Assembly (NCBI GenBank): GCA_016932785.1
Contig: JAFGCJ010000002.1
Location: 273,777-337,776, forward strand
Reading direction: 5' to 3'
DNA: 64,000 nt
Source: Candidatus Dojkabacteria bacterium
GTDB lineage: Bacteria > Patescibacteriota > Dojkabacteria > SC72 > JAFGCJ01
Shown: positions 6,296 through 61,966 of the stretch, piece by piece
How the letters are laid out: the number at the start of each line of letters is the position of its first letter
How positions within the stretch are numbered: the first letter of the stretch is position 1
Notes under the pieces: generated by a model
What the model was told of the DNA's origin: nothing
What the model saw: the letters and a program-made list of their open reading frames with translations, nothing else
Database searches by the model: none
Program-made: the position numbers and the translations under genes

Positions 6296-6973
6296 ATGAA
6301 CAACATTGACGTAAAAAAACTAAAGCTTTTTGTTTGCTCAACAACAATTACATCTCGGCTTCTTCCAAAGTTTGAAGACTTTGTTGGACGGAAAGCCGAT
6401 GGAATGAAGGTGGCTTTTATACCCGATGGCGCATTAGCCGAAGAAGGCAGCGAAAAATGGATCAACGAGTTTCAAAACAGTCTCAAAAAAATCGGATTCA
6501 AGTTAACAGAATACCACCTGGGAAAAGTACAAGATAAAAATCATTCATCACTTCTTGCTTTCGATGCTATTTTAGTAGCAGGTGGATCAAGTTGAAAATT
6601 AATAGATCTTTACCGAAAAACCCGTTTCGATGTCTTCCTTAATCAAGCTTTCGAAAAAGGAATAACATATATCGGCTCCAGTGCGTCAGGTATGATACTA
6701 TCATCATCTTTGGATTCGTCAGACTGGTACATCGGAGAAGAGGAACGGGGAACAAAAGAAATTCAGGGACTTGGGTATCTTTCCTTCCAAGTTTATCCTC
6801 ACTTTGAAGAAAAATTTCTTCCGGAAATATTAAAAAAGAGAAACCATGGGCTCAATTACTTACTACTAAAAGATGGTGAGGCTTTTTCGTATGATGGGCA
6901 GGTAATGAAGTTTTATGGAGAGAAGAACCTATATCCCAGGGATGATATAGACAATTTACGACCTACAAGCTGA
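6296..6973 (+). pseudogene. peptidase S51 (dipeptidase E/cyanophycinase family) interrupted by one in-frame TGA
   Basis: ORFs 6296..6595 and 6692..6973 are in the same frame, and hand translation of 6596-6691 is open. The only interruption is TGA at 6593-6595. The joined product reads ..AILVAGGSS*KLIDLY..ITYIGSSASGMIL.. This matches the GGGNTFxLL and catalytic GxSAG motifs of PepE-like enzymes. Confidence 0.7.
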
Positions 6974-6979
6974 AAGAGT

Positions 6980-6994
6980 AACCGAATGACACGG
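6980..6994. repeat. left arm of a 15-bp perfect inverted repeat bracketing the 7.0-8.0 kb G+C-rich cassette
   Basis: AACCGAATGACACGG is the exact reverse complement of 8013-8027. Confidence 0.8.
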
Positions 6995-7026
6995 GTAAAA
7001 AAGGAGAAATTGGCAAGAAAATTCGG

Positions 7027-7260
7027 CTACTCTTCGTCTCTGGTTTCACCTCCTTGTATAAGGGTGGTTTGACGAGCTCGAAGCTCGTTTTCGCACTTTT
7101 CGCACAAATGCGAAATTCTCGTCAAGCCAAAACTTTTTATGTGATGGTCGCAAAACCACTTCTTGCAACCGTCACATTTAATGACTGCATTATTTCCGCA
7201 GCCTCTATGACATTTGACAAGAAATCCTATGTAGGGTCGGAAGGCCCTTCTTTTAGCCAT
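7027..7260 (-). CDS. small AN1-like zinc-finger protein
   Basis: MAKRRAFRPY.. start chosen (ORF track gives 7281). The Cys/His pattern C-x3-C-x7-C-x2-C-x4-C-x2-H..H-x-C plus CEKC resembles an AN1-type two-zinc finger. It overlaps the upstream gene by 8 nt, suggesting translational coupling. Confidence 0.55.
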   Translation of the reverse strand: MAKRRAFRPYIGFLVKCHRGCGNNAVIKCDGCKKWFCDHHIKSFGLTRISHLCEKCENELRARQTTLIQGGETRDEE

Positions 7261-7933
7261 CTTGACCTCCTTCCCCACCACTGCAAAACTTCTCTAGGGT
7301 AAGGGGTATTCCCTCACCCGAGATCTCTCCGTCGAGAGATCGCTGATGGATAGCCTCGAAGTGCTCGCAAGTAACCGTCTCCCCAGGAATCCAGCGAACC
7401 GGTTTACACATGATCAACCAGCTCCTCGCATATTCCGCTCCCAGAAGACATTGTTCGTCTTCCTTTAGATACAGACTAGCGAGTCCGTCCTTTACGACGG
7501 TTTCTTCGCTAGCCGGAAGGCCTTCAGGAGAGAACACGTACGCATACATATTCCCTGTGACTTCCTTTTTCCAAATAACTGCTCGTTTCTTAGGTCCAAC
7601 AGTGCCTATCCAGACCTTAATGAGTACGACTTCGTCGAAGTCGTACCCAAATACGGCCATGCCGCCGGAATGGTCGTAATACTCAAAACAACCGGTCCAA
7701 CGCACCTGTTGACCGGTCTGAGGATTTACAACTTTTCTCGGAAGATTCTTGGCCTCTTCCGGGAGATTTTCAAACCCACATTCTTCAAACTCACCAGTCT
7801 GCTGAATTTCCTCAACCTCGGCATTTGCCTCGCCGAGAGTCATGTATTGTTGCTTGTTCAATTGATCAGCAACAATAACCAAAACCACCAATAAAACGAC
7901 TATAAGAATAGCCAAAAGAAATTCGTTCCTCAT
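7253..7933 (-). CDS. membrane-anchored hypothetical protein (G+C-rich ORFan)
   Basis: AAGGAGG RBS 6 nt before the ATG at 7933. N-terminal TM LLAILIVVLLVVLVIV. No family motif recognised. Confidence 0.6.
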   Translation of the reverse strand: MRNEFLLAILIVVLLVVLVIVADQLNKQQYMTLGEANAEVEEIQQTGEFEECGFENLPEEAKNLPRKVVNPQTGQQVRWTGCFEYYDHSGGMAVFGYDFDEVVLIKVWIGTVGPKKRAVIWKKEVTGNMYAYVFSPEGLPASEETVVKDGLASLYLKEDEQCLLGAEYARSWLIMCKPVRWIPGETVTCEHFEAIHQRSLDGEISGEGIPLTLEKFCSGGEGGQDG

Positions 7934-7958
7934 CGTCGGCCTCCTTTTTCGTTTTTAT

Positions 7959-8010
7959 GTTGAACCAGAACAAAACCCACAAAAACATGCTGGCTTTATT
8001 CTGGTTCAAC
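7959..8010 (-). promoter_or_regulatory. 12-bp perfect stem hairpin in the 5' region of the cassette
   Basis: GTTGAACCAGAA (7959-7970) and TTCTGGTTCAAC (7999-8010) with a 28-nt loop. It sits between the right IR arm and the RBS of 7933. Confidence 0.6.
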
Positions 8011-8012
8011 TT

Positions 8013-8027
8013 CCGTGTCATTCGGTT
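8013..8027. repeat. right arm of the 15-bp inverted repeat
   Basis: CCGTGTCATTCGGTT followed by TTTAAAG. Exact complement of 6980-6994. Confidence 0.8.
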
Positions 8028-8153
8028 TTTAAAGATCGTCTGTTTTACCAGACCTATAGTATTGTACCATTTGTTGACCTATGTCATCAACACAACCACG
8101 GAAACCCAGATGCACAATAAGGATAAATAAACCGCGAAAATATTAGATTTGCT

Positions 8154-12038: not shown

Positions 12039-12079
12039 CGTTCGAACTGTAGATTTTTTAAGTTCACACTGAAAAACGC

Positions 12080-12094
12080 CACCGAAAGGACGGG
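12080..12094. repeat. left arm of an imperfect inverted repeat bracketing the 12.1-13.1 kb G+C-rich cassette
   Basis: CACCGAAAGGACGGG compared with the reverse complement of 13086-13100 (AACCGAAAGGAAGGG): 13/15 identical. It shares the AACCGAA core with the 6980/8013 pair. Confidence 0.6.
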
Positions 12095-12172: not shown

Positions 12173-13066
12173 TCATTGATTCTGCAGAGCTGGATACTGC
12201 TCCCTCACTGTTTCTTGCCAGATTCCATAGGAATCGTGTTCCTTGAATCCTATGGGAATCCCGTACTCATCTACTTCAGCCTCTTGAGCAAACTCTCCGA
12301 AGAGCTGAGTCCACTCTTTTTGCACAGAGACCCACATAGCATCCTGTTCTGGTTCTCCGTAACCTTTGAAATACCAGAACATCTGAATCCACTGGGCCTC
12401 TGCTTCCATCTCTGGAAGTTTTTTCTTGAGAGTGGAGATCGCACGATCACCAAACTCTTGAGATCCAATGCCTCCGACCTCCTGCTCCAGATCTGAATAG
12501 ATCTGAGAAATTTGCCGTAGATGGATGTACTCCTGGGTCAAACACGACCAGGAGTTTGGGCTCTCCAAGAGAGCCGGATAGACATTCAAATCGAAGCGGA
12601 GAACTTTATAGCTCCCCACAATAACAATCTCTATGGGGTCGATCTCTACTTGAACTGCTCTCTTAGGCACAGGCTGATATACAACTGTCATCATCTGTGC
12701 TTTCCAGAATCCTTCATCGCCAAGGCTCATGACGCTTTGATGATCCTGATCACGAGCCTGTTGAAGAAATTCCTCTGAGGCCAATGAAGCCAAGCGTGGG
12801 ATATCTTCCCTCTTGGCCGTCTTTTCGAGGAGCTCTAAGAATTGCTCCTTCATTTCGCCCACAGGAACAGATGACGCAACTACCTCCTCAGATGGTACAG
12901 AAGTGTCCGTCGGGCTAAAGACAACAGTCGGCTCGATTGTCACAGTCTCGGGTCTCGATGACCCGGCTGTAACAAACCCAGCCGCGACTAGCAAGATAAC
13001 AACCACGAGTATTCCCAAAACGCGCAAGTTTCTTTTCTTCCTTGTCTTCTTTGACATTTTTATCAT
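12173..13066 (-). CDS. membrane-anchored hypothetical protein (G+C-rich ORFan)
   Basis: 297-aa ORF with a basic N-terminus and TM (VLGILVVVILLVAAGFV). Five alternate-frame shadow ORFs in the track indicate elevated G+C. Confidence 0.6.
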   Translation of the reverse strand: MIKMSKKTRKKRNLRVLGILVVVILLVAAGFVTAGSSRPETVTIEPTVVFSPTDTSVPSEEVVASSVPVGEMKEQFLELLEKTAKREDIPRLASLASEEFLQQARDQDHQSVMSLGDEGFWKAQMMTVVYQPVPKRAVQVEIDPIEIVIVGSYKVLRFDLNVYPALLESPNSWSCLTQEYIHLRQISQIYSDLEQEVGGIGSQEFGDRAISTLKKKLPEMEAEAQWIQMFWYFKGYGEPEQDAMWVSVQKEWTQLFGEFAQEAEVDEYGIPIGFKEHDSYGIWQETVREQYPALQNQ

Positions 13067-13085: not shown

Positions 13086-13100
13086 CCCTTCCTTTCGGTT
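13086..13100. repeat. right arm of the inverted repeat
   Basis: CCCTTCCTTTCGGTT followed by TTTTAATG. This has the same ..TTCGGTTTTT..AA context as 8013-8034. Confidence 0.6.
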
Positions 13101-13330
13101 TTTTAATGAACTTGAGGCCCATAGAGGGCACTCTTCAGTCATATTATAGCCCACAGTCCACAATGAAGTAAAACCCATTAACAAAAGGAAAATCGTCAAG
13201 AACAGACATCAAAATTTTCTACAAATTCTGTTTTCATGATCTCACACCACATCAGTTAGATCACTTTTCCTATAACAATTCGTATGCAATAATGTATAAG
13301 ACCTCGAATATATTTTAATATCAAATCATC

Positions 13331-22398: not shown

Positions 22399-22414
22399 AA
22401 TTTGGCAAATATAT
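22398..22414. repeat. 17-nt exact direct repeat, copy 1 (upstream of rubrerythrin)
   Basis: AAATTTGGCAAATATAT is identical to 23069-23085. It contains TTGGCA, which with N17 and TAAAAT could form the rbr promoter. Confidence 0.7.
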
Positions 22415-22448: not shown

Positions 22449-23042
22449 TTGAATACTATGAACAAACTATTAGAGGTACTGTCCAAAGCATTCATTGGCG
22501 AAAGCATGGCAAGAAATCGCTACACCTTCTACGGAAAAATTGCCCAAAAAGAAGGATACGAGAAAATCGGCGAAATATTTTTACTTACGGCAAATCAGGA
22601 GAAAGAACACGCAAACTGGCTTTTTAAGCTGATCCAAGAGGTAAAGGATAAAACAGGAGACAAGACAGATCCAATAGTGGTTGAATCTGAGGTTCCATCG
22701 GTTCTCGGAACCACAGAAGAAAACCTCAAAGCAGCAATGGCCGGAGAAAACTACGAGCACACTTCGATGTACCCGGAATTCGCTGACATTGCCGAAAAAG
22801 AAGATTTTCCTAAAATAGCTGACAGGCTCAGATCAATTGCCAAAGCAGAGAAAAACCATGAAGAAAGATATTCCATCTATCTGCAACAGCTTGAAACAGG
22901 AACACTATTTAGAAAAGAAAAACCAGTAAAATGGGTCTGCAGAGAATGCGGATATGTACATGAGGGAACAGAACCTCCAGCCGAATGCCCTTCCTGTTCA
23001 CATGAAAAGAGCTTCTACGAGCTAAAATGTGACTGCGCGTAG
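22449..23042 (+). CDS. rbr: rubrerythrin
   Basis: Ferritin-like diiron region (ESMARNRYTFYG.., ..EKEHANW.., ..GENYEHTSMYPEF.., ..AEKNHEERY..) plus a C-terminal rubredoxin-like WVCRECGY..CPSCSH. Confidence 0.9.
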   Translation: MNTMNKLLEVLSKAFIGESMARNRYTFYGKIAQKEGYEKIGEIFLLTANQEKEHANWLFKLIQEVKDKTGDKTDPIVVESEVPSVLGTTEENLKAAMAGENYEHTSMYPEFADIAEKEDFPKIADRLRSIAKAEKNHEERYSIYLQQLETGTLFRKEKPVKWVCRECGYVHEGTEPPAECPSCSHEKSFYELKCDCA

Positions 23043-23068: not shown

Positions 23069-23085
23069 AAATTTGGCAAATATAT
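23069..23085. repeat. 17-nt exact direct repeat, copy 2 (downstream of rubrerythrin)
   Basis: AAATTTGGCAAATATAT, 27 nt after the rbr stop. Confidence 0.7.
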
Positions 23086-33961: not shown

Positions 33962-35476
33962 ATGAACAACCACAAAAAAATCAAAAACAAACTAGACAAA
34001 CTTGGATTTAAGTACCAGACTATTGACCTTGCCACAGAGTCTTTGGATCTCGACGAACAGGTCCGCGCAGGGAATCTTAAATACAGCGAATGTGTTGGAA
34101 CACTTCTAATCAAAGACCAACGGGGTAATTACTATGCTTTCCTTAGAAGAGACGACAGAAAAATGGATGCCGAAAAGGTGAAAACGATTATTGGAAGCGA
34201 CTCATTTGATTTCTGTGATGACAAAGACCTTGAAAAAATAGGATTCGAATCAGGACTTCTTTCTCCAGTACTACTAAACGACGGCAAAAAACCAATCAAA
34301 GTATTTGTAGATCAAAATATCAAAAAGATGAAAGTCGTTAACTGTGGACCGGCAATTCCCGGTGCAACCCTCCGTCTCGATAAAGACGATCTCCTCAAGG
34401 CAGTTGGAGAATATGAATTTATAGATTTTACACAGCCTAACCCCCAGAGATCTGATGATCTTTTCTCCTCTGATAAGGTTGTTTACACCGCTGATACCCC
34501 AACAGGTCAGATGCATATCGGACATTACGTTGGAACACTAGAAAATCGGGTTAAGCTCCAAGATAGATTCAACTGTTTTTTCGGACTTGCCAACTATCAC
34601 TCATTTTCATATATGCAAAAAGGTGAGGGCCTCTATAAGAATCCAGATTTTATTCACGAAGTGACTCTACAGGTTGCCATGGATAATCTAGCGGTAGGAA
34701 TAAACCCCGAAAAGTGTACCTACTATATCGAATCAGATGTTCCTGAGACATGTGAACTTGCAATGCTCTTCAGCATGCTGGTATCACACAACCGCGCCCT
34801 AAGAAATCCGACCATTAAGGACGAAATTAAACTAAAAGGCATGGGAAATCAGTTCTCACTTGGATTCATCAACTATCCAATGCTCCAAGCAGCGGATATC
34901 CTTATATTTAAAGCCGAATTAATTCCTGTCGGCAAAGACCAGTTGCCCCATATTGAGCAATCGAGAGAAATAGCCCGAGACTTTAACGAGCTATATGGTG
35001 AGACATTCCCAATTCCAGAGGGTCTTGTAGGAAAGGTCGGAATGCTTCCAGGACTTGATAACAAAAAAATGAGCAAAAGTCTCGGAAATGCTATCGTATT
35101 CACTGATTCCGACGAAGAAATCAAAAAGAAAATAATGAGCATGTACACCGATCCTAACAGGATACATCCGACTGATCCTGGCAAGGTAAAAGACAACCCC
35201 GTATTTATATACCATGAAGCTTTCAATCCAGATAAGGAAGAAATTGAAGATTTGAAGGAACGCTATGAAACCGGAAAAGTCGGCGATGTGGAGGTAAAGG
35301 AGAAACTGGCAAATGCTATGATTAATTTCATCGCTCCAATTCGAGAAAGAAGAAAGAAATACGAGGATAATCCTGACCTTCTAAGAGAAATTCTATCAGA
35401 AGGCGGCAAAAAAGCTAGAAAAGAAGCAAAGAAAACCATGTCCGAAGTCAGAGAAAAGATGAAACTGGACTTCTAG
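33962..35476 (+). CDS. trpS: tryptophan--tRNA ligase with N-terminal YbaK/ProX-like (tRNA_edit-type) domain
   Basis: Residues ~1-165 follow the YbaK pattern (..CVGTLLIKD..YYAFLRRDDRKMD..GFESGLLSPVLL..VNCGPAIPGATLRL). The class Ic core has TPTGQMHIGHYVG (HIGH), PMLQAADIL, GKDQLPHIEQSREIARDFN and KKMSKS. The upstream T-box has a UGG specifier. Confidence 0.85.
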   Translation: MNNHKKIKNKLDKLGFKYQTIDLATESLDLDEQVRAGNLKYSECVGTLLIKDQRGNYYAFLRRDDRKMDAEKVKTIIGSDSFDFCDDKDLEKIGFESGLLSPVLLNDGKKPIKVFVDQNIKKMKVVNCGPAIPGATLRLDKDDLLKAVGEYEFIDFTQPNPQRSDDLFSSDKVVYTADTPTGQMHIGHYVGTLENRVKLQDRFNCFFGLANYHSFSYMQKGEGLYKNPDFIHEVTLQVAMDNLAVGINPEKCTYYIESDVPETCELAMLFSMLVSHNRALRNPTIKDEIKLKGMGNQFSLGFINYPMLQAADILIFKAELIPVGKDQLPHIEQSREIARDFNELYGETFPIPEGLVGKVGMLPGLDNKKMSKSLGNAIVFTDSDEEIKKKIMSMYTDPNRIHPTDPGKVKDNPVFIYHEAFNPDKEEIEDLKERYETGKVGDVEVKEKLANAMINFIAPIRERRKKYEDNPDLLREILSEGGKKARKEAKKTMSEVREKMKLDF

Positions 35477-39281: not shown

Positions 39282-40907
39282 CTATCTCATTAGGTTCTCC
39301 AGACGTGTAATCAAATCCGCCATACTCTTAGGTTCAAAATGCCTTCTGGCGGGTTCCAAAATCTTTACTACTGCTTCAGATACAGCTGTCTTTAGATCCA
39401 ACGGATGAAGCTTGCCTTCCTCAAACAGATTAAACATTTCCTGCTCAGATTCAAAATTGATATCTCCTCCATGTTTCTTTTCTCTTTTGACCTCTAGCTT
39501 TCCTAAAATAGGAAAAACCAAGTGCTTCGCCCAATCTAAAACGGGATTAAACTCAATCTCCCTTTCAGGACAGAAAGCTCCATTTATCTTCCTTCGTATC
39601 TCATCGACACTGTCATGGATAAACACACACGTATCAGGCTTAGATTTACTCATTTTCATCTCTGACCAAAGTTCTCTAAGCCTTGCCTTATCCTTAATCG
39701 GCCAAACTGGCGGCTTACCAAGACCAAGAATTAGGTGGTGATGAATTGCAACAGGCTTTATCTTATTCTTGCTTTCGTCCAATAATGGAGAGACCTCGAG
39801 TTTTTCAGCAACTTCGCGAGCTATAACATGTGCCTTCCTCTGATCCATACCCCCATGAGCAATATTTACACCAATATTAAAAATATCATTAACCTGCATC
39901 GGCGGATATACAAGCCAGGCAAAGCATTGATTCTCTCCCTCACGCCTACCCATAATCGTGGAACTCTTTACTACACGAGCCAGAGTCAGATTCTTGGAGA
40001 CATCAATAAACGATTGCCAGTACTTATCATTATTGTGATAAAACTCAGATCCAAGGATAAAATTCACTTTCAACGGATCAGCCCCGGCACACTTCAACGA
40101 TGCAATTAATGCTTCCTTAAAATATCCCACTGCAACTTCAGTTATCGTCTCAAGATCTCCATTTAGCTTTCCATTTATCCAGGCATGCCAATCTGCAAGC
40201 AAGATATTGCACTCAACACCGGCCTTGAGTAGATCCTTGATTTTAAGAGCAGTCATAAGTCCGCTCCCAATATGGAGTTTACCGGAAATTTCAAAACCAA
40301 TATAATGGCGAAGCTTAGTTTCTCCAACTATCAGCGATTCCAGATCCTTCTCCGTAAGACACTCTTCAAGATTTCCCGTTATTAAACTTTTCTTCTTTTC
40401 TTGGCTGAGAGAAAGACTCATCTCTATTTTCTCCTTATTACTTAATTTATCGGCCAATTGGGTCACTCTAACATTATGCAATTTACTCAGTGCTTCTTCA
40501 ACACTAAGGTTTATACCCTTAGCCAAATCCCCGGCTCCCATACTCCATCTATCCATATCCGCGGCTTCTTTATCAACCAATATTGGGATGTCAAGCAGGA
40601 AAGGATTTAAACACCCTGGCCGAAACTTAAAATTTTCCGCTAATGCTTGTTCGTCCAGAATATCCCATTTCCCGATGTTTTTCCTCAGAAGCTTCTGATC
40701 AATGCGTTGATCCCCCTTAAGCAGAACAGCAAAAAAGCCCTCAGATGTTTTCACAACTAAAGTCTTTATTGCAATTTGCGGATCATAATTCTTGTCCACT
40801 GAAGAATCGACCTTTCGAGCAGATATGGCCCTATCCGTAAAAGTAATTTCTTCAAAGTTCAGTCCTATTTTCTTCAATTTTCTGGCAACAGAATCAAATG
40901 TATGCAT
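39282..40907 (-). CDS. tyrS: tyrosine--tRNA ligase, archaeal/eukaryotic type, with N-terminal YbaK/ProX-like domain
   Basis: The core closely parallels M. jannaschii TyrRS from memory: HYIGFEISGKLHIGSG, LLADWHAWIN, YPPMQVNDIFNIGVNIAHGGMDQRKAHVIARE, KMSKSKPDTCVFIHDS and HGGDINFESEQEMFNLFEEGKLHPLDLKTAVSEAVVKILEPARR. The N-terminal ~160 aa follow the YbaK pattern (..IAIKTLVVK..FFAVLLKGDQRID..FRPGCLNPFLL..SMGAGDLAKGINLS). Confidence 0.88.
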   Translation of the reverse strand: MHTFDSVARKLKKIGLNFEEITFTDRAISARKVDSSVDKNYDPQIAIKTLVVKTSEGFFAVLLKGDQRIDQKLLRKNIGKWDILDEQALAENFKFRPGCLNPFLLDIPILVDKEAADMDRWSMGAGDLAKGINLSVEEALSKLHNVRVTQLADKLSNKEKIEMSLSLSQEKKKSLITGNLEECLTEKDLESLIVGETKLRHYIGFEISGKLHIGSGLMTALKIKDLLKAGVECNILLADWHAWINGKLNGDLETITEVAVGYFKEALIASLKCAGADPLKVNFILGSEFYHNNDKYWQSFIDVSKNLTLARVVKSSTIMGRREGENQCFAWLVYPPMQVNDIFNIGVNIAHGGMDQRKAHVIAREVAEKLEVSPLLDESKNKIKPVAIHHHLILGLGKPPVWPIKDKARLRELWSEMKMSKSKPDTCVFIHDSVDEIRRKINGAFCPEREIEFNPVLDWAKHLVFPILGKLEVKREKKHGGDINFESEQEMFNLFEEGKLHPLDLKTAVSEAVVKILEPARRHFEPKSMADLITRLENLMR

Positions 40908-41376: not shown

Positions 41377-41400
41377 TGCCAGGCATAGCCTATGCCAGCA
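41377..41400. repeat. REP-like palindrome (degenerate copy, opposite orientation)
   Basis: TGCCAGGCATAG-C-CTATGCCAGCA has the same core as the REPs flanking the RAYT gene. It carries one A.A mismatch at the variable arm position. Confidence 0.65.
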
Positions 41401-46123: not shown

Positions 46124-46150
46124 TGTCAGGCATAGGCTATGCCTGACATA
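46124..46150. repeat. REP palindrome flanking the RAYT gene (3' side)
   Basis: ATGTCAGGCATAG-G-CTATGCCTGACAT has 13-nt perfect arms around a single central nt. It overlaps the last codons and stop of the RAYT ORF. Confidence 0.8.
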
Positions 46151-46607
46151 GAGTCTTTGTAAAATGAATGTATCGTGGATTAATGTATAACCACTTGTAA
46201 AAGGAAGGGTCGTATACATACCCTTCCTTGACCGGATTTCTCTCGATATACCTGATCAGCCTACGTAAACTGCTCTTTGTGAAAACAGATTTTGCTTGAT
46301 AACGCCCCTGAAAAGTATGCCCCACAAGCCTATATTTCAAATTGAAATATTTCGAATATGATGTTAAAAGTCTCTGCATAAGAATTGATATCTCATCGCC
46401 AAAACCCTGCCTAACAACCAAATGAAAATGATTATCCATAAGACAATATCCTATTAGCTCTATACCACAATCAAAGACAGTCCTCTTCAATTTACTAATA
46501 AAGAATAACCGGTCTATTCTCGACCGAAAAATCCTTTTTTTTCTATTACCACGATTGTATACATGATATATAACACCAGATTTATAGTCCCTCTTAACTC
46601 TATTCAT
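46137..46607 (-). mobile_element. REP-associated tyrosine transposase (RAYT; IS200/IS605 Y1 transposase-like)
   Basis: 156 aa. VIYHVYNRGN, the HUH motif LMDNHFHLVV, GHTFQGRYQAK and the catalytic-Tyr region LIRYIERNPVKEG. It is flanked on both sides by cognate palindromes. Confidence 0.85.
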
Positions 46608-46660: not shown

Positions 46661-46685
46661 TGTCTGGCATAGGCTATGCCAGACA
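46661..46685. repeat. REP palindrome flanking the RAYT gene (5' side)
   Basis: TGTCTGGCATAG-G-CTATGCCAGACA has perfect 12-nt arms. It differs from the 46124 copy by an A>T change that is compensated in the other arm. Confidence 0.8.
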
Positions 46686-50460: not shown

Positions 50461-50877
50461 TTCGTAGCTCCTTTTTTTTCGTGTCTGATTTTTGAACTTT
50501 ATTAACACCTTTTTACCTGATTTGCCCGTTTTAGCTAGCGGATATACTAAAGACAAAAATCTACCAAAATGATGAGGCCTTGAACCACCTCTTATCCCCA
50601 GTATATCCGCTGCTATAACAAGCAACTTTTTTCTGCTGCTGCTTTACTAAAACCGATAGCTATTTTCTCGTGGTCTACCATTAAATAAGGTAAGCACACA
50701 ACAAGCCATCGTAAATAGCATTATAACCTTTAATAAAGCAACTTTATCAAAGAACTAATTAATTGCTATATAAAATTATTATACCAGATACAGCCAATAA
50801 ATTAAATACACTATAGGTTGTCACGAGGCGCTATTTCTGATATACTTTCACCATATATTAACTATTTACTAGCCAAA

Positions 50878-57095: not shown

Positions 57096-57181
57096 TCCTG
57101 TATTATATCATGCTGGAATAGTATTTTTCAACCTATAGTATAAACAGAGGGCCGGGAAGCAAAACAAAATCTGTGACCAAA

Positions 57182-59566: not shown

Positions 59567-59645
59567 AAGAATATTACCAGAAGCCGACTCTCTTGTTTAG
59601 GTATAGGCTTAAGACTGTTTATACTATTTTATTAGTACCAAGAAA

Positions 59646-61213: not shown

Positions 61214-61966
61214 ATGAAGAAGCTCCGGACCTATAACCTAATAATGGGCTTTTTTCATCTAATTCAGGCTGGTCTGATGATTGCCCTCAGTAACGATTTC
61301 GCTCTTCCAGTGACAACACGTTATCTTAGATTTAATATACAAACTCAATCATTGCAACCCAAGTCTGAAGAGATAGCTACTCTCAAAATAGGCCCTCTGG
61401 TAGCACTTTTCTTACTTATGTCCGCGATGGCCCACTTTCTATTAACAATTCCGAGAATTTACAACTGGTACACCAAGAATCTAAAAAAGGGGATAAACTA
61501 CGCCAGATGGTACGAGTATTCCCTCAGTTCCTCGGTAATGATTGTTGTAATAGCAATGCTTACTGGAGTTTATGACTTGAGTAGTCTCATTCTAATGTTT
61601 TCAATAAATGCGATGATGATATTCTGCGGACTAATGATGGAAAGGCACAATCAAAACACCAAGAAAACGGACTGGGTGCCGTATGTGTTCGGTTGCTTCG
61701 CAGGAGCTGTACCTTGGGTTGTTATTGCCCTTTATCTATTCGGTTCAGCCGACGGAGAGAATCGAGCACCAGATTTCGTTTACTATATATTCTTCTCGAT
61801 TTTCCTGTTCTTCAACTCTTTTGCTGTAAATATGTTTTTGCAGTACAAGAAGGTTGGAAAATGGAAGGACTACTTATTCGGAGAAAAGGTATACATTTTG
61901 CTCAGTCTGCTTGCCAAATCACTACTAGCCTGGCAGGTATTCGGAGGAACTTTGAGACCGGAATAA
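61214..61966 (+). CDS. heliorhodopsin
   Basis: 250 aa with 7 TM. There are long collinear matches to heliorhodopsin 48C12 as I recall it: FHLIQ..LSNDFALP, RWYEYSLSSSVMIV (Glu101 is the counterion position), FGCFAGAVPW, FLFFNSFA, and LQYKKVGKWKDYLFGEKVYILLSLLAKSLLAWQVFGGTL. Lys235, codon 61916-61918, is at the Schiff-base position. Confidence 0.88.
   Translation: MKKLRTYNLIMGFFHLIQAGLMIALSNDFALPVTTRYLRFNIQTQSLQPKSEEIATLKIGPLVALFLLMSAMAHFLLTIPRIYNWYTKNLKKGINYARWYEYSLSSSVMIVVIAMLTGVYDLSSLILMFSINAMMIFCGLMMERHNQNTKKTDWVPYVFGCFAGAVPWVVIALYLFGSADGENRAPDFVYYIFFSIFLFFNSFAVNMFLQYKKVGKWKDYLFGEKVYILLSLLAKSLLAWQVFGGTLRPE

Follow-up and report, generated by a model that had tools for sequence, protein, structure and literature searches.

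A perfect 15-bp inverted repeat encloses two minus-strand genes of Candidatus Dojkabacteria, and its two arms probably form a conserved helix between the 5'UTR and the 3'UTR that closes the mRNA of a small family of membrane-anchored proteins. The family belongs to low-G+C, CPR-type bacteria. Complementarity of the arms, its conservation and compensatory changes were found in five independent loci, and both arms are placed inside the predicted transcription unit. An mRNA loop is more likely than a mobile cassette, because distant relatives keep the arms in their UTRs with compensating changes. The earlier note had offered both readings, a MITE-like cargo element or cassette and a 5'/3'-UTR pairing that closes the transcript, and it is the second that the comparative evidence favours.

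The inverted repeat and the genes it encloses

The analysis covered a stretch of 64 kb (the window), and the positions of the features discussed are collected in Table 1. The repeat consists of AACCGAATGACACGG at 6980-6994 and its exact complement at 8013-8027 (15/15 matches), as the earlier note had described it. The arms are 1018 nt apart, the repeat does not extend past 15 nt, and each arm is non-palindromic. The hairpin with a 12-bp perfect stem that the note had placed at 7959-8010 was likewise confirmed. No second copy of the arm was found within the 64-kb window, even when up to three mismatches were tolerated. The motif AACCGAA occurs elsewhere in the window mostly in coding sequence, where it is uninformative.

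Table 1. Positions in the window of the genes, repeat arms and predicted signals of the unit, in the order of transcription
Feature	Position	Strand	Remarks
Promoter-like site TTGATG-18-TACAAT	8061..8090	-	Consensus scan; predicted; outside and upstream of the 5' arm
Extended -10 box TGgTACAAT	8069-8061	-	Predicted
Small hairpin GTCTG-gtaaaa-CAGAC	8038..8053	-	Folding; predicted mRNA 5' end
5' arm AACCGAAUGACACGG	8013..8027	-	In the 5'UTR; preceded by an A-tract
Invariant core CCGAAUGA of the 5' arm	8025-8018	-	
Large 5'UTR hairpin	7959..8010	-	Between the 5' arm and the ribosome-binding site
Ribosome-binding region AAAAAGGAGGC of the 226-aa gene	7939..7949	-	Predicted pairing with the 3'UTR
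226-aa protein gene	7253..7933	-	N-terminal membrane anchor; small uncharacterised family; G+C 0.48
77-aa Cys/His-rich (zinc-finger-like) protein gene	7027..7260	-	GGAGG site; inside the predicted closing helix
Alternative local 3' hairpin	6975..7033	-	AGAGUAGCCGAAU (7033-7021) with AUUCGGUUACUCU (6987-6975)
Pyrimidine-rich anti-ribosome-binding segment UUCUCCUUUUUU	6997..7008	-	3'UTR; directly upstream of the 3' arm
3' arm CCGUGUCAUUCGGUU	6980..6994	-	3'UTR; begins 33 nt past the stop of the second gene

The note had also judged a 15-mer match unlikely by chance. When the window was resampled as a first-order Markov sequence, which keeps the dinucleotide frequencies on average, perfect 15-mer inverted pairs at most 1.5 kb apart appeared at 0.21 per resampled window. 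Since 13 of 100 shuffled windows held at least one such pair, the 15-bp repeat taken alone is not significant. With the arms limited to two different intergenic regions, 15 nt was reached in 0 of 300 shuffles, and in a control with real distant intergenic pairs 3 matches of at least 13 nt were observed against 0.35 expected. As judged by comparison of the sequences, conservation in homologous loci is the decisive evidence that the repeat is real. A chance match without function, for which the 13 shuffled windows would speak, is refuted by the same arms in the same positions with compensatory changes at four other independent loci, and its probability is practically nil.

The genes for the 226-aa and 77-aa proteins (7933>7253 and 7260>7027) overlap by 8 nt, and each is preceded by a GGAGG ribosome-binding site. 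The 226-aa protein, which is probably surface-exposed, is identical to NCBI entry JW710_02125 of Candidatus Dojkabacteria. Word-based homology searches returned only the protein itself, and a full HMMER scan was needed to find its family. With seven representatives among 1.84 billion, all in singleton clusters, this family is small and rare; no homologue was found in phage or plasmid collections. Pfam and NCBIfam gave no match to the 226-aa protein. An AlphaFold model built from the alignment is confident (pLDDT 88.9), in contrast to a useless single-sequence model (pLDDT 44), and showed no fold match in the PDB or among viral structures. For the 77-aa protein, word-based searches found no homologue and Pfam gave sub-threshold matches only. 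Its gene is present only at the window's locus and is absent from the other four (L007, L009, L012 and L014).

Neither gene matches any transposase family, in line with the earlier statement that no transposase lies inside the repeat. The compositional boundary noted at these overlapping genes is also real. The 226-aa gene has a G+C content of 0.48 and the 77-aa gene of 0.44, against a window mean of 0.40 +/- 0.04, and the former is one of about four genes in the window that are so G+C-rich. The boundary at the family gene recurs in every homologous locus (gene/surroundings in the five loci: 0.52/0.37, 0.48/0.34, 0.50/0.36, 0.34/0.29 and 0.48/0.40). For the neighbouring APH kinase, no relative exceeds 59% identity, and these relatives stand in unrelated contexts.

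Conservation of the arms and the predicted transcript

The comparison was made with five loci, that of the window and L007, L009, L012 and L014, whose proteins are 40%, 29%, 31% and 27% identical to the 226-aa protein, respectively. The variable parts of the arms are distinct in four of them. The earlier note had raised the case of relatives that carry the same genes without the repeat; the opposite was found, as these relatives carry it. The arms pair over 14/15 positions in L007, 15/15 in L009 and L014, and 15-16 in L012, and are placed 34-99 nt ahead of the start codon and 25-98 nt beyond the stop. The outer 8 bp (CCGAATGA/TCATTCGG) are unchanged in all loci. Five further base pairs vary between loci on both sides while pairing is kept at 100%, and the only mismatch of the arms, in L007, is a G.U pair on the sense RNA. 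The covariation score was 0.42 compared to 0.20 in shuffles, none of which reached it (0/500), and sliding the partner by 1-3 columns lowered pairing from 86% to 26-39%. These are the compensatory changes expected of a pairing between 5'UTR and 3'UTR. The genomic context of the unit differs at every locus.

The core is missing from two more distantly related paralogues. These have 5'/3' complements of other sequence, 12 and 9 bp long, which shuffles matched in 8/200 and 7/200 trials, respectively. Searches with family alignments returned only an already known locus from metagenome contigs (alignment A2) and nothing from genome contigs (alignment A3).

At all five loci a TGnTAnAAT box, taken as the predicted promoter, lies 16-83 nt upstream of the core of the 5' arm. 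Because of this position, the arms fall within the predicted transcript and the conserved unit starts outside the repeat; the arms stand between the predicted promoter and the ORF, and shortly past the last stop, in 5/5 loci. Conservation continues outside the repeat into the promoter, the A-tract and the 5' leader. In minimum-energy folds of the full-length predicted transcripts the arms paired with each other at all five loci (probability 0.99-1.00). As no U-tract follows the 3' arm, the helix itself is not a terminator. Rfam gave no family at threshold, the best match (E = 0.43) being far under its gathering score.

The arms are accompanied by hairpins that are continuous, via G.U pairs, on the sense strand only. 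The perfect stem of the large 5'UTR hairpin becomes 19 contiguous pairs in the sense RNA, including two G.U, and the sense-strand fold of the 126-nt 5'UTR reaches -42.4 kcal/mol (z = -5.9), whereas the antisense strand has internal mismatches. A hairpin of unlike sequence occupies the same position in L007 and L014; a large hairpin on the 5' side is absent from L009 and L012. The alternative local 3' hairpin, predicted to engage the 3' arm in competition with the long-range helix, lies in an 86-nt stretch (6960-7045) that folds at -20.9 kcal/mol (z = -2.5); one G.U keeps its stem continuous in the sense RNA, where the antisense strand has an A.C mismatch.

Further complementarities between the two UTRs differ from locus to locus. 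In the window, 7949-7939 pairs with 6997-7008 in both the minimum-energy and the centroid fold of the whole transcript, a predicted 11-bp helix over the ribosome-binding site. L014 shows a weak counterpart, with the segment CCUCCUCC at the place equivalent to the pyrimidine-rich segment, and the anti-ribosome-binding segment is absent in L007, L009 and L012. L014 also has an extra 5'/3' helix of 18 bp, including two G.U. Small hairpins equivalent to the one at the predicted mRNA 5' end of the window are present in L007 and L014; the CAGACC element of L009 and L012 has its complement in the 3'UTR instead. In these two loci the predicted mRNA 5' end matches the 3'UTR over 9 and 8 bp, respectively, in a crossed order (X-Y...X'-Y') with short linkers, so that this complement and the arm helix cannot form together. 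RNA duplex energies of whole UTRs did not separate own from foreign partners, except in L014.

A proposed closing helix and its rivals

Under the favoured reading, transcription would begin at the extended -10 promoter that closely precedes the 5' arm and pass through the 226-aa gene and, in the window, also through the extra zinc-finger gene. Once synthesised, the 3' arm would join its 5' counterpart in a 15-bp duplex, leaving the coding region as a closed loop. Such a duplex could guard the mRNA at both ends, against decay that depends on the 5' end and against 3' exonucleases. In the window and L014 it may also bring the neighbouring pyrimidine tract onto the ribosome-binding site, and the full-length mRNA would persist with little translation until opening or cleavage of the helix, RNase III being one candidate. 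Competition of the local 3' hairpin (7033-6975) for the 3' arm could tune the balance of these states. The invariance of the outer 8 bp (CCGAAUGA/UCAUUCGG) would imply in addition a sequence-specific reader, putatively a protein or nuclease.

Some observations sit less well with end-pairing. If pairing alone mattered, perfect invariance of an 8-bp core would be unexpected, since an RNA duplex is seldom recognised by its sequence. Arms that are alike within a locus and differ between loci would also fit one protein that reads both DNA sites, or homogenisation by recombination, and the predicted covering of the ribosome-binding site is limited to two of the five loci. The core holds a conserved AUG, and this AUG opens two-codon mini-ORFs in 3/5 loci. 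We tentatively propose, as a possibility well short of probable, an undescribed cis-acting mRNA element of the CPR, in which an ORF-spanning closing helix is inherited with the protein family and its core serves as the recognition site of a dedicated factor gating a surface protein's stability or translation. In the window, 5'/3' complements of their own (14 bp and 13/14 bp) are also carried by two other G+C-rich genes, which encode anchored orphan proteins, so that end-pairing might be a wider habit of the genome; a genome-wide habit was discarded, as 3 of 49 candidate transcription units were outliers and the others were uniform.

The principal rival takes the arms as recombination sites at which a recombinase encoded elsewhere flips the 1-kb segment, cutting the gene of the surface protein off its fixed upstream promoter and giving phase-variable on/off expression. 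We consider such an inverton unlikely, though several features suit it. The repeat flanks a whole gene with the promoter just outside, and the orientation of the segment would thus set expression from that promoter; a membrane-anchored, probably surface-exposed product is the usual target of phase variation; and a conserved core next to a locus-specific part alike in both arms fits the recombinase-binding element and crossover region of which the invertons of Bacteroides and Clostridioides are composed. However, all seven assemblies of the five loci show the 'on' orientation. A search of the proteins predicted in the 64-kb window (by Pfam and, for a handful of ORFs, by precomputed hits) gave no recombinase or invertase; the only mobile-element gene there encodes an IS200-type Y1 transposase 38 kb away (46137-46607), and the precomputed hits record no recombinase beside L009 or L014. 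Both arms lack the arm-spacer-arm arrangement typical of tyrosine recombinase sites, a flipped segment would present the promoter with no meaningful ORF, and the extra 5'/3' complementarities and sense-strand G.U pairs would have no role. If true, the inverton would likewise be of interest, as a switch for phase variation in an ultra-small bacterial symbiont.

That the arms are the terminal inverted repeats of a non-autonomous mobile element or gene cassette, whose G+C-rich cargo is moved by a transposase acting in trans, seems to us quite improbable. The repeats do look terminal, with the conserved part as the outermost 8 bp, and the raised G+C of the family gene and its changing genomic context at each locus would agree with mobility. 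Beyond these 15-bp perfect repeats the MITE assignment is not supported: no target-site duplications or other direct repeats border the arms at any of the five loci, the window holds a single arm pair, and conservation does not end at the repeat, as the promoter outside it, which starts the unit, and the 5' leader are conserved with the unit. Proteins at 27-40% identity between unchanged, intact ends are a misfit with recent mobilisation. The absence of the family from phage and plasmid collections and its singleton clusters also argue against mobility, as do the lack of a transposase or recombinase beside the unit at any locus and the viral contigs, where the 5' arm core occurs 82 times by chance, never with an inverted partner within 3.5 kb. 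Slightly less probable still is a pair of inverted operators for a DNA-looping regulator, co-varying as the specificity of the regulator drifts. An invariant core is typical of protein-DNA recognition and one site is near the promoter, yet the arms are non-palindromic while regulators that bind as dimers normally call for symmetric sites, none of the loci has a regulator gene linked to the unit, and the fixed helix length, the extra complementarities and the G.U pattern are left unexplained.

Other identities were tried and rejected. As an integron attC site, the hairpin at 7959-8010 (GTTGAAC...GTTCAAC) has its boxes in the wrong order with one mismatch each; its sequence is not conserved in the homologous loci, and no integrase was found. 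In elements of the IS200/IS605 type, imperfect hairpins lie subterminally at either end and terminal inverted repeats are absent; the unit has a single large hairpin, on the 5' side, which is missing in L009 and L012 and whose sequence is unrelated to the palindromes next to the Y1 transposase. A split terminator, in which an older bidirectional terminator would have received the cassette in its loop, was dropped because the arms accompany the gene into unrelated contexts.

Comparison with known systems

End-pairing of bacterial mRNAs is known from a handful of experimentally found cases (hbs, icaR and hok), and it escapes standard RNA-motif searches because the partners are about 1 kb apart. 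Here it is compensatory evolution across a gene family that supports end-pairing, in organisms that cannot be cultured. The unit offers a concrete, testable example of selection on the architecture of a whole transcript and suggests a search strategy, namely for covarying 5'/3' complements around orthologous genes.

Among DNA elements, the invertible switches fimS, those of the Bacteroides capsule and the C. difficile flagellar and cwpV switches are among the closest. Short inverted repeats with a conserved core, and a segment between a fixed promoter and a surface-protein function, are shared with them. In known invertons it is mostly a promoter or a short piece of the 5'UTR that is inverted, and both orientations are observed, whereas here a whole gene is inside the repeat, a single orientation is seen and no invertase is linked. 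In integron attC sites the arms are separated by tens of nucleotides and come after the ORF, with the boxes R'' (RYYYAAC) and R' (GTTRRRY). The unit resembles them in a conserved outer box and a varying inner part that keeps its complementarity, and differs in that the R''/R' consensus does not fit and there is neither an integrase nor a cassette array.

Among mRNAs, hok of the hok/sok system of plasmid R1, described by the Gerdes laboratory, pairs the 3' end of its full-length form with its 5' end (fbi/tac). The folded-back mRNA is closed, stable and translationally inert, and 3' processing activates it. hok encodes a small toxin and has an antisense RNA partner, whereas the window has neither an antisense gene nor toxin features and carries an anchored protein of 226 aa.

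In icaR of S. aureus, a pyrimidine motif of the 3'UTR pairs with the mRNA's own ribosome-binding region, which blocks initiation and creates a substrate for RNase III (Ruiz de los Mozos et al., 2013; PMC3868564). The pyrimidine tract adjoining the 3' arm in the window and L014 is alike. In icaR this pairing with the ribosome-binding site makes up the entire interaction; in the family studied here it is predicted as an optional extension, at two of five loci, of a universal helix that lies upstream of that site. The B. subtilis hbs mRNA carries a 14-bp helix between 5'UTR and 3'UTR that is an established device and modulates the access of ribonucleases (Braun, Durand and Condon, 2017; PMC5737220). 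As predicted for the window, it is a long-range duplex of similar length (14 versus 15 bp) in a short mRNA, and it adjoins a 5' leader that is structured, as well as a strong ribosome-binding site (PMC5737220). The hbs helix was demonstrated experimentally in one species, whereas the helix proposed here is supported by covariation across a protein family, includes an invariant 8-bp core, and belongs to another gene and another phylum.

The inverted repeat and its neighbourhood

The perfect 15-bp inverted repeat described in the earlier note is present, with arms that are complementary at 15 of 15 positions, 1018 nt between them and pairing that ends at 15. As claimed, it encloses two overlapping minus-strand genes (8-nt overlap, GGAGG ahead of each), and the hairpin next to them is real. 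The window comes from a Candidatus Dojkabacteria genome, and NCBI JW710_02125, encoded on a 598,548-bp contig, has the same sequence as the 226-aa protein. Neither enclosed protein showed a transposase, recombinase, Pfam or NCBIfam match above threshold, in line with the statement that no transposase lies inside. The description as a G+C-rich cassette holds for the 226-aa gene (G+C 0.48, GC3 0.49; window means 0.40 ± 0.04 and 0.38 ± 0.06), but the window has about four G+C-rich genes, this one included, and it is therefore no unique island.

Coordinates of the repeats and genes discussed
Feature	Position	Strand	Remarks
Arm AACCGAATGACACGG	6980-6994; exact complement 8013-8027		15 bp
226-aa gene	7933-7253	minus	N-terminal transmembrane helix in product
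77-aa gene	7260-7027	minus	Cys/His-rich product
Hairpin	7959-8010		
Invariant core	8018-8025		Holds AUG
Peptidase S51 gene	6296-6973	plus	In-frame TGA at 6593-6595
Inverted pair ACCGAAAGGAnGGG	12079-12094 / 13089-13107		13/14
Gene within ACCGAAAGGAnGGG	12173-13066	minus	Third G+C-rich anchored orphan
Direct repeat AATTTGGCAAATATAT	22399-22414 / 23070-23085		16 nt; nearly palindromic in itself
Rubrerythrin gene	22449-23042		Between the AATTTGGCAAATATAT copies
Class Ib aminoacyl-tRNA synthetases	33962-35476; 39282-40907		Tyr/Trp-type
Near-palindrome CTGGCATAGGCTATGCCAG	46664-46680; 41382-41398		~57 nt upstream of the transposase gene; second copy in another intergenic region, 5 kb off
Y1 transposase gene	46137-46607		IS200-type
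Inverted pair AGCAGCAGCAGAAA	48672-48685 / 50630-50643		14 nt, perfect
Gene within AGCAGCAGCAGAAA	48826-50460	minus	G+C 0.54, highest in window; orphan with N-terminal membrane anchor
Inverted pair ATAGTATAAACAG	57135-57147 / 59615-59627		13 nt, perfect; around operon of FAD oxidase, Fe-S protein and CCG-domain protein genes
Heliorhodopsin gene	61214-61966		Pfam E = 1e-105

The repeat had been rated unlikely by chance, with about 0.1 expected. Taken alone, it does not stand out: when the window was resampled with a first-order Markov model, which preserves dinucleotide frequencies on average, a resampled window held on average 0.21 perfect inverted pairs of 15-mers at distances up to 1.5 kb, and 13 of 100 had at least one. 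It does stand out when each arm has to fall in a different intergenic region; none of 300 shuffles then reached 15 nt. Nearby intergenic pairs of at least 13 nt numbered 3, against 0.35 expected from a control of real distant intergenic pairs (Poisson p ~0.006). Other copies of the arm, also raised in the earlier note, did not turn up in the window with up to 3 mismatches allowed.

Several other features of the window were recorded. Of 49 candidate transcription units, just three are outliers, the unit within AGCAGCAGCAGAAA among them; its gene probably starts at Met56 (MNKKLNV) rather than at the TTG at 50625. The ACCGAAAGGAnGGG arm is similar to the family core ACCGAA and likewise has an A-tract ahead; its 3' copy doubles as a small hairpin followed by U5, and the protein within has no detectable kinship with the 226-aa family beyond the anchor. 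Each ATAGTATAAACAG copy reads outward as CTGTTTATACTAT, and the copies may be similar -10 regions of the flanking glycosyltransferase and TetR genes. The CTGGCATAGGCTATGCCAG palindromes are candidates for REP/RAYT-like repeats or for end hairpins of IS200. The TGA in the peptidase S51 gene falls within the GGSS-x-KL motif region, with the frame unchanged past it, and could reflect a pseudogene, a sequencing error or recoding. Both synthetases begin with a YbaK-like tRNA editing domain, an unusual fusion, and the heliorhodopsin gene is hosted by a small CPR genome.

The protein family and its arms

Both enclosed proteins looked like orphans in word-based searches, and the neighbouring genes were of no help for comparison: even the best relatives of APH were at most 59% identical and stood in unrelated contexts. 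When 1.84 billion representative proteins were scanned in full with HMMER, the 226-aa protein proved to have a small family, consisting of P0122 (40% identity, E = 1e-42) and of P0123-P0127 and P0129 (25-31% identical in the alignment of the family). Members have in common an N-terminal anchor and a set of conserved residues (Trp, Lys-Glu, Asp-Gly-Leu and Cys); the 90%-identity clusters of the family are all singletons, and no homologues were found in phage and plasmid collections. The AlphaFold model obtained from the family alignment was confident (pLDDT 88.9) and matched nothing in the PDB or among viral folds. At every locus the G+C content of the family gene is above that of the host, possibly through a foreign origin or through selection acting on the mRNA. 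The zinc-finger (77-aa) gene is found only in the window, inside the repeat. Locus L009 also contains a tandem, very distant paralogue (2046-2819; hhalign probability 97%) beside the family protein P0124.

The contigs of family members were retrieved and the flanks of their genes were inspected for arms.

Arms at the loci of the family, with protein identity to the 226-aa protein
Locus	Identity	5' arm	3' arm	Pairing
Window		AACCGAATGACACGG	CCGTGTCATTCGGTT	15/15
L007	40%	CCGAATGACACGGGT	ACTCGTGTCATTCGG	14/15; the mismatch is G.U on sense RNA
L009 (= L010 = L011, one locus in three assemblies)	29%	TACCGAATGACTTAA	TTAAGTCATTCGGTA	15/15
L012	31%	CCGAATGATGTAGTA	TACTACATCATTCGG	15/15; 16 counting the preceding G:C
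L014	27%	ACCGAATGACGTAAA	TTTACGTCATTCGGT	15/15

The 5' core lies 34-99 nt ahead of the start codon and the 3' core 25-98 nt past the stop. An ungapped alignment of the arm regions revealed 8 invariant pairs (CCGAAUGA/UCAUUCGG), and the 5 pairs beside them vary on both sides while being 100% paired. The arm covariation score was 0.42, compared to 0.20 ± 0.04 for shuffles (0 of 500 reached 0.42), and pairing was 86% in register and 26-39% with the partner slid by 1-3 columns. As a negative control, 82 sites with the 5' arm core and A-tract were collected from viral contigs, none of which had an inverted partner within 3.5 kb. These comparisons exclude a chance origin of the repeat, because the arms recur at homologous loci and covary, and the 82 viral core sites lack a partner. 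Judged from five loci in all, the repeat belongs to the unit of the gene and is conserved with it.

Predicted transcripts and competing readings

An extended -10 box (TGnTAnAAT) is found 16-83 nt upstream of the arm core at all five loci. The conserved unit would thus begin outside the arms, and this speaks against reading them as the terminal repeats of a mobile element. Three leaders, those of L007, L014 and the window, run from the promoter through a small 5' hairpin, the A-tract with the arm and a large hairpin to the ribosome-binding site, and the only conserved islands among them are the -10 box and TTnnAAAACCGAATGAC; the large hairpins (-21 to -33 kcal/mol) are unrelated in sequence. 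L009 and L012 have a shorter leader form. G.U pairs allow the hairpin stems to run without interruption on the sense RNA only. The 5'UTR fold of the window has z = -5.9, and in full-length folds of all five predicted transcripts the arms are paired in the minimum-energy structure (probability 0.99-1.00). No U-tract follows the 3' arm.

Additional 5'/3' complements differ between loci. In the window, the ribosome-binding site AAAAAGGAGGC is predicted to pair with UCUCCUUUUUU, which immediately precedes the 3' arm, whereupon the large hairpin would become a branch of a three-way junction. L014 has an 18-bp helix (two G.U pairs) between the 3' half of its large hairpin and the 3'UTR, and a CCUCCUCC tract adjoins its arm. 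Coverage of the ribosome-binding site is predicted in two loci only. L009 and L012 carry CAGACC(AA) at the predicted +1, with the complement lying shortly before the 3' arm; this CAGACC/GGTCTG complement is in crossed order with 1-2 nt linkers on one side, and its pairing and the arm helix are mutually exclusive. The tandem paralogue in L009 and the more distant member L015 are without the CCGAATGA core and have other complements instead: 12 bp in the former (AUCCAGUUUGAA/UUCAGACUGGAU, one G.U; 8 of 200 shuffles reach 12 bp), with a GGUCUgaaAGACC hairpin in its leader, and 9 bp in the latter (7 of 200 shuffles reach 9 bp). The invariant core holds an AUG at the other loci as in the window, a pattern spotted after the fact. 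It continues as AUG-ACU-UAA in L009, AUG-ACG-UAA in L014 and AUG-AUG-UAG in L012, a two-codon mini-ORF in each, and opens frames of 9 codons in L007 and 51 in the window; no ribosome-binding site lies consistently upstream of it across loci.

Of the readings offered in the earlier note we lean towards the 5'/3'-UTR pairing: the repeat would probably form a helix closing the mRNA, the evidence being purely comparative, namely arms that are conserved, covary and lie inside the predicted transcripts at all five loci. Arms that are identical within a locus and different between loci could also arise from inter-arm recombination, as in invertons. An invertible switch is a serious rival, although clearly less probable than the helix: the family gene is in sense orientation relative to the promoter in 7/7 assemblies, and no recombinase was found among the predicted proteins of the window (Pfam, a handful of ORFs via precomputed hits only) or in the recorded hits next to L009 or L014. 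A common protein reading both arms could likewise account for the pattern of identity within and difference between loci, and the invariant 8-bp core fits such a reader better than plain RNA pairing.

The other proposal of the earlier note, a MITE-like cargo element or gene cassette, is unlikely, as target-site duplications are absent at every locus and the predicted promoter lies outside the repeat. Membership among MITEs, integron attC sites and IS200-type elements was considered and rejected, since each fails at least one defining feature.

The feature has no match in Rfam. The closest precedents to the putative arm helix are found in hok, hbs and icaR. The hok mRNA is subject to fold-back inhibition. 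In the B. subtilis hbs mRNA a 14-bp 5'/3'-UTR helix modulates access of RNase Y (PMC5737220), and in S. aureus icaR the 3'UTR provides an anti-Shine-Dalgarno pairing (PMC3868564).
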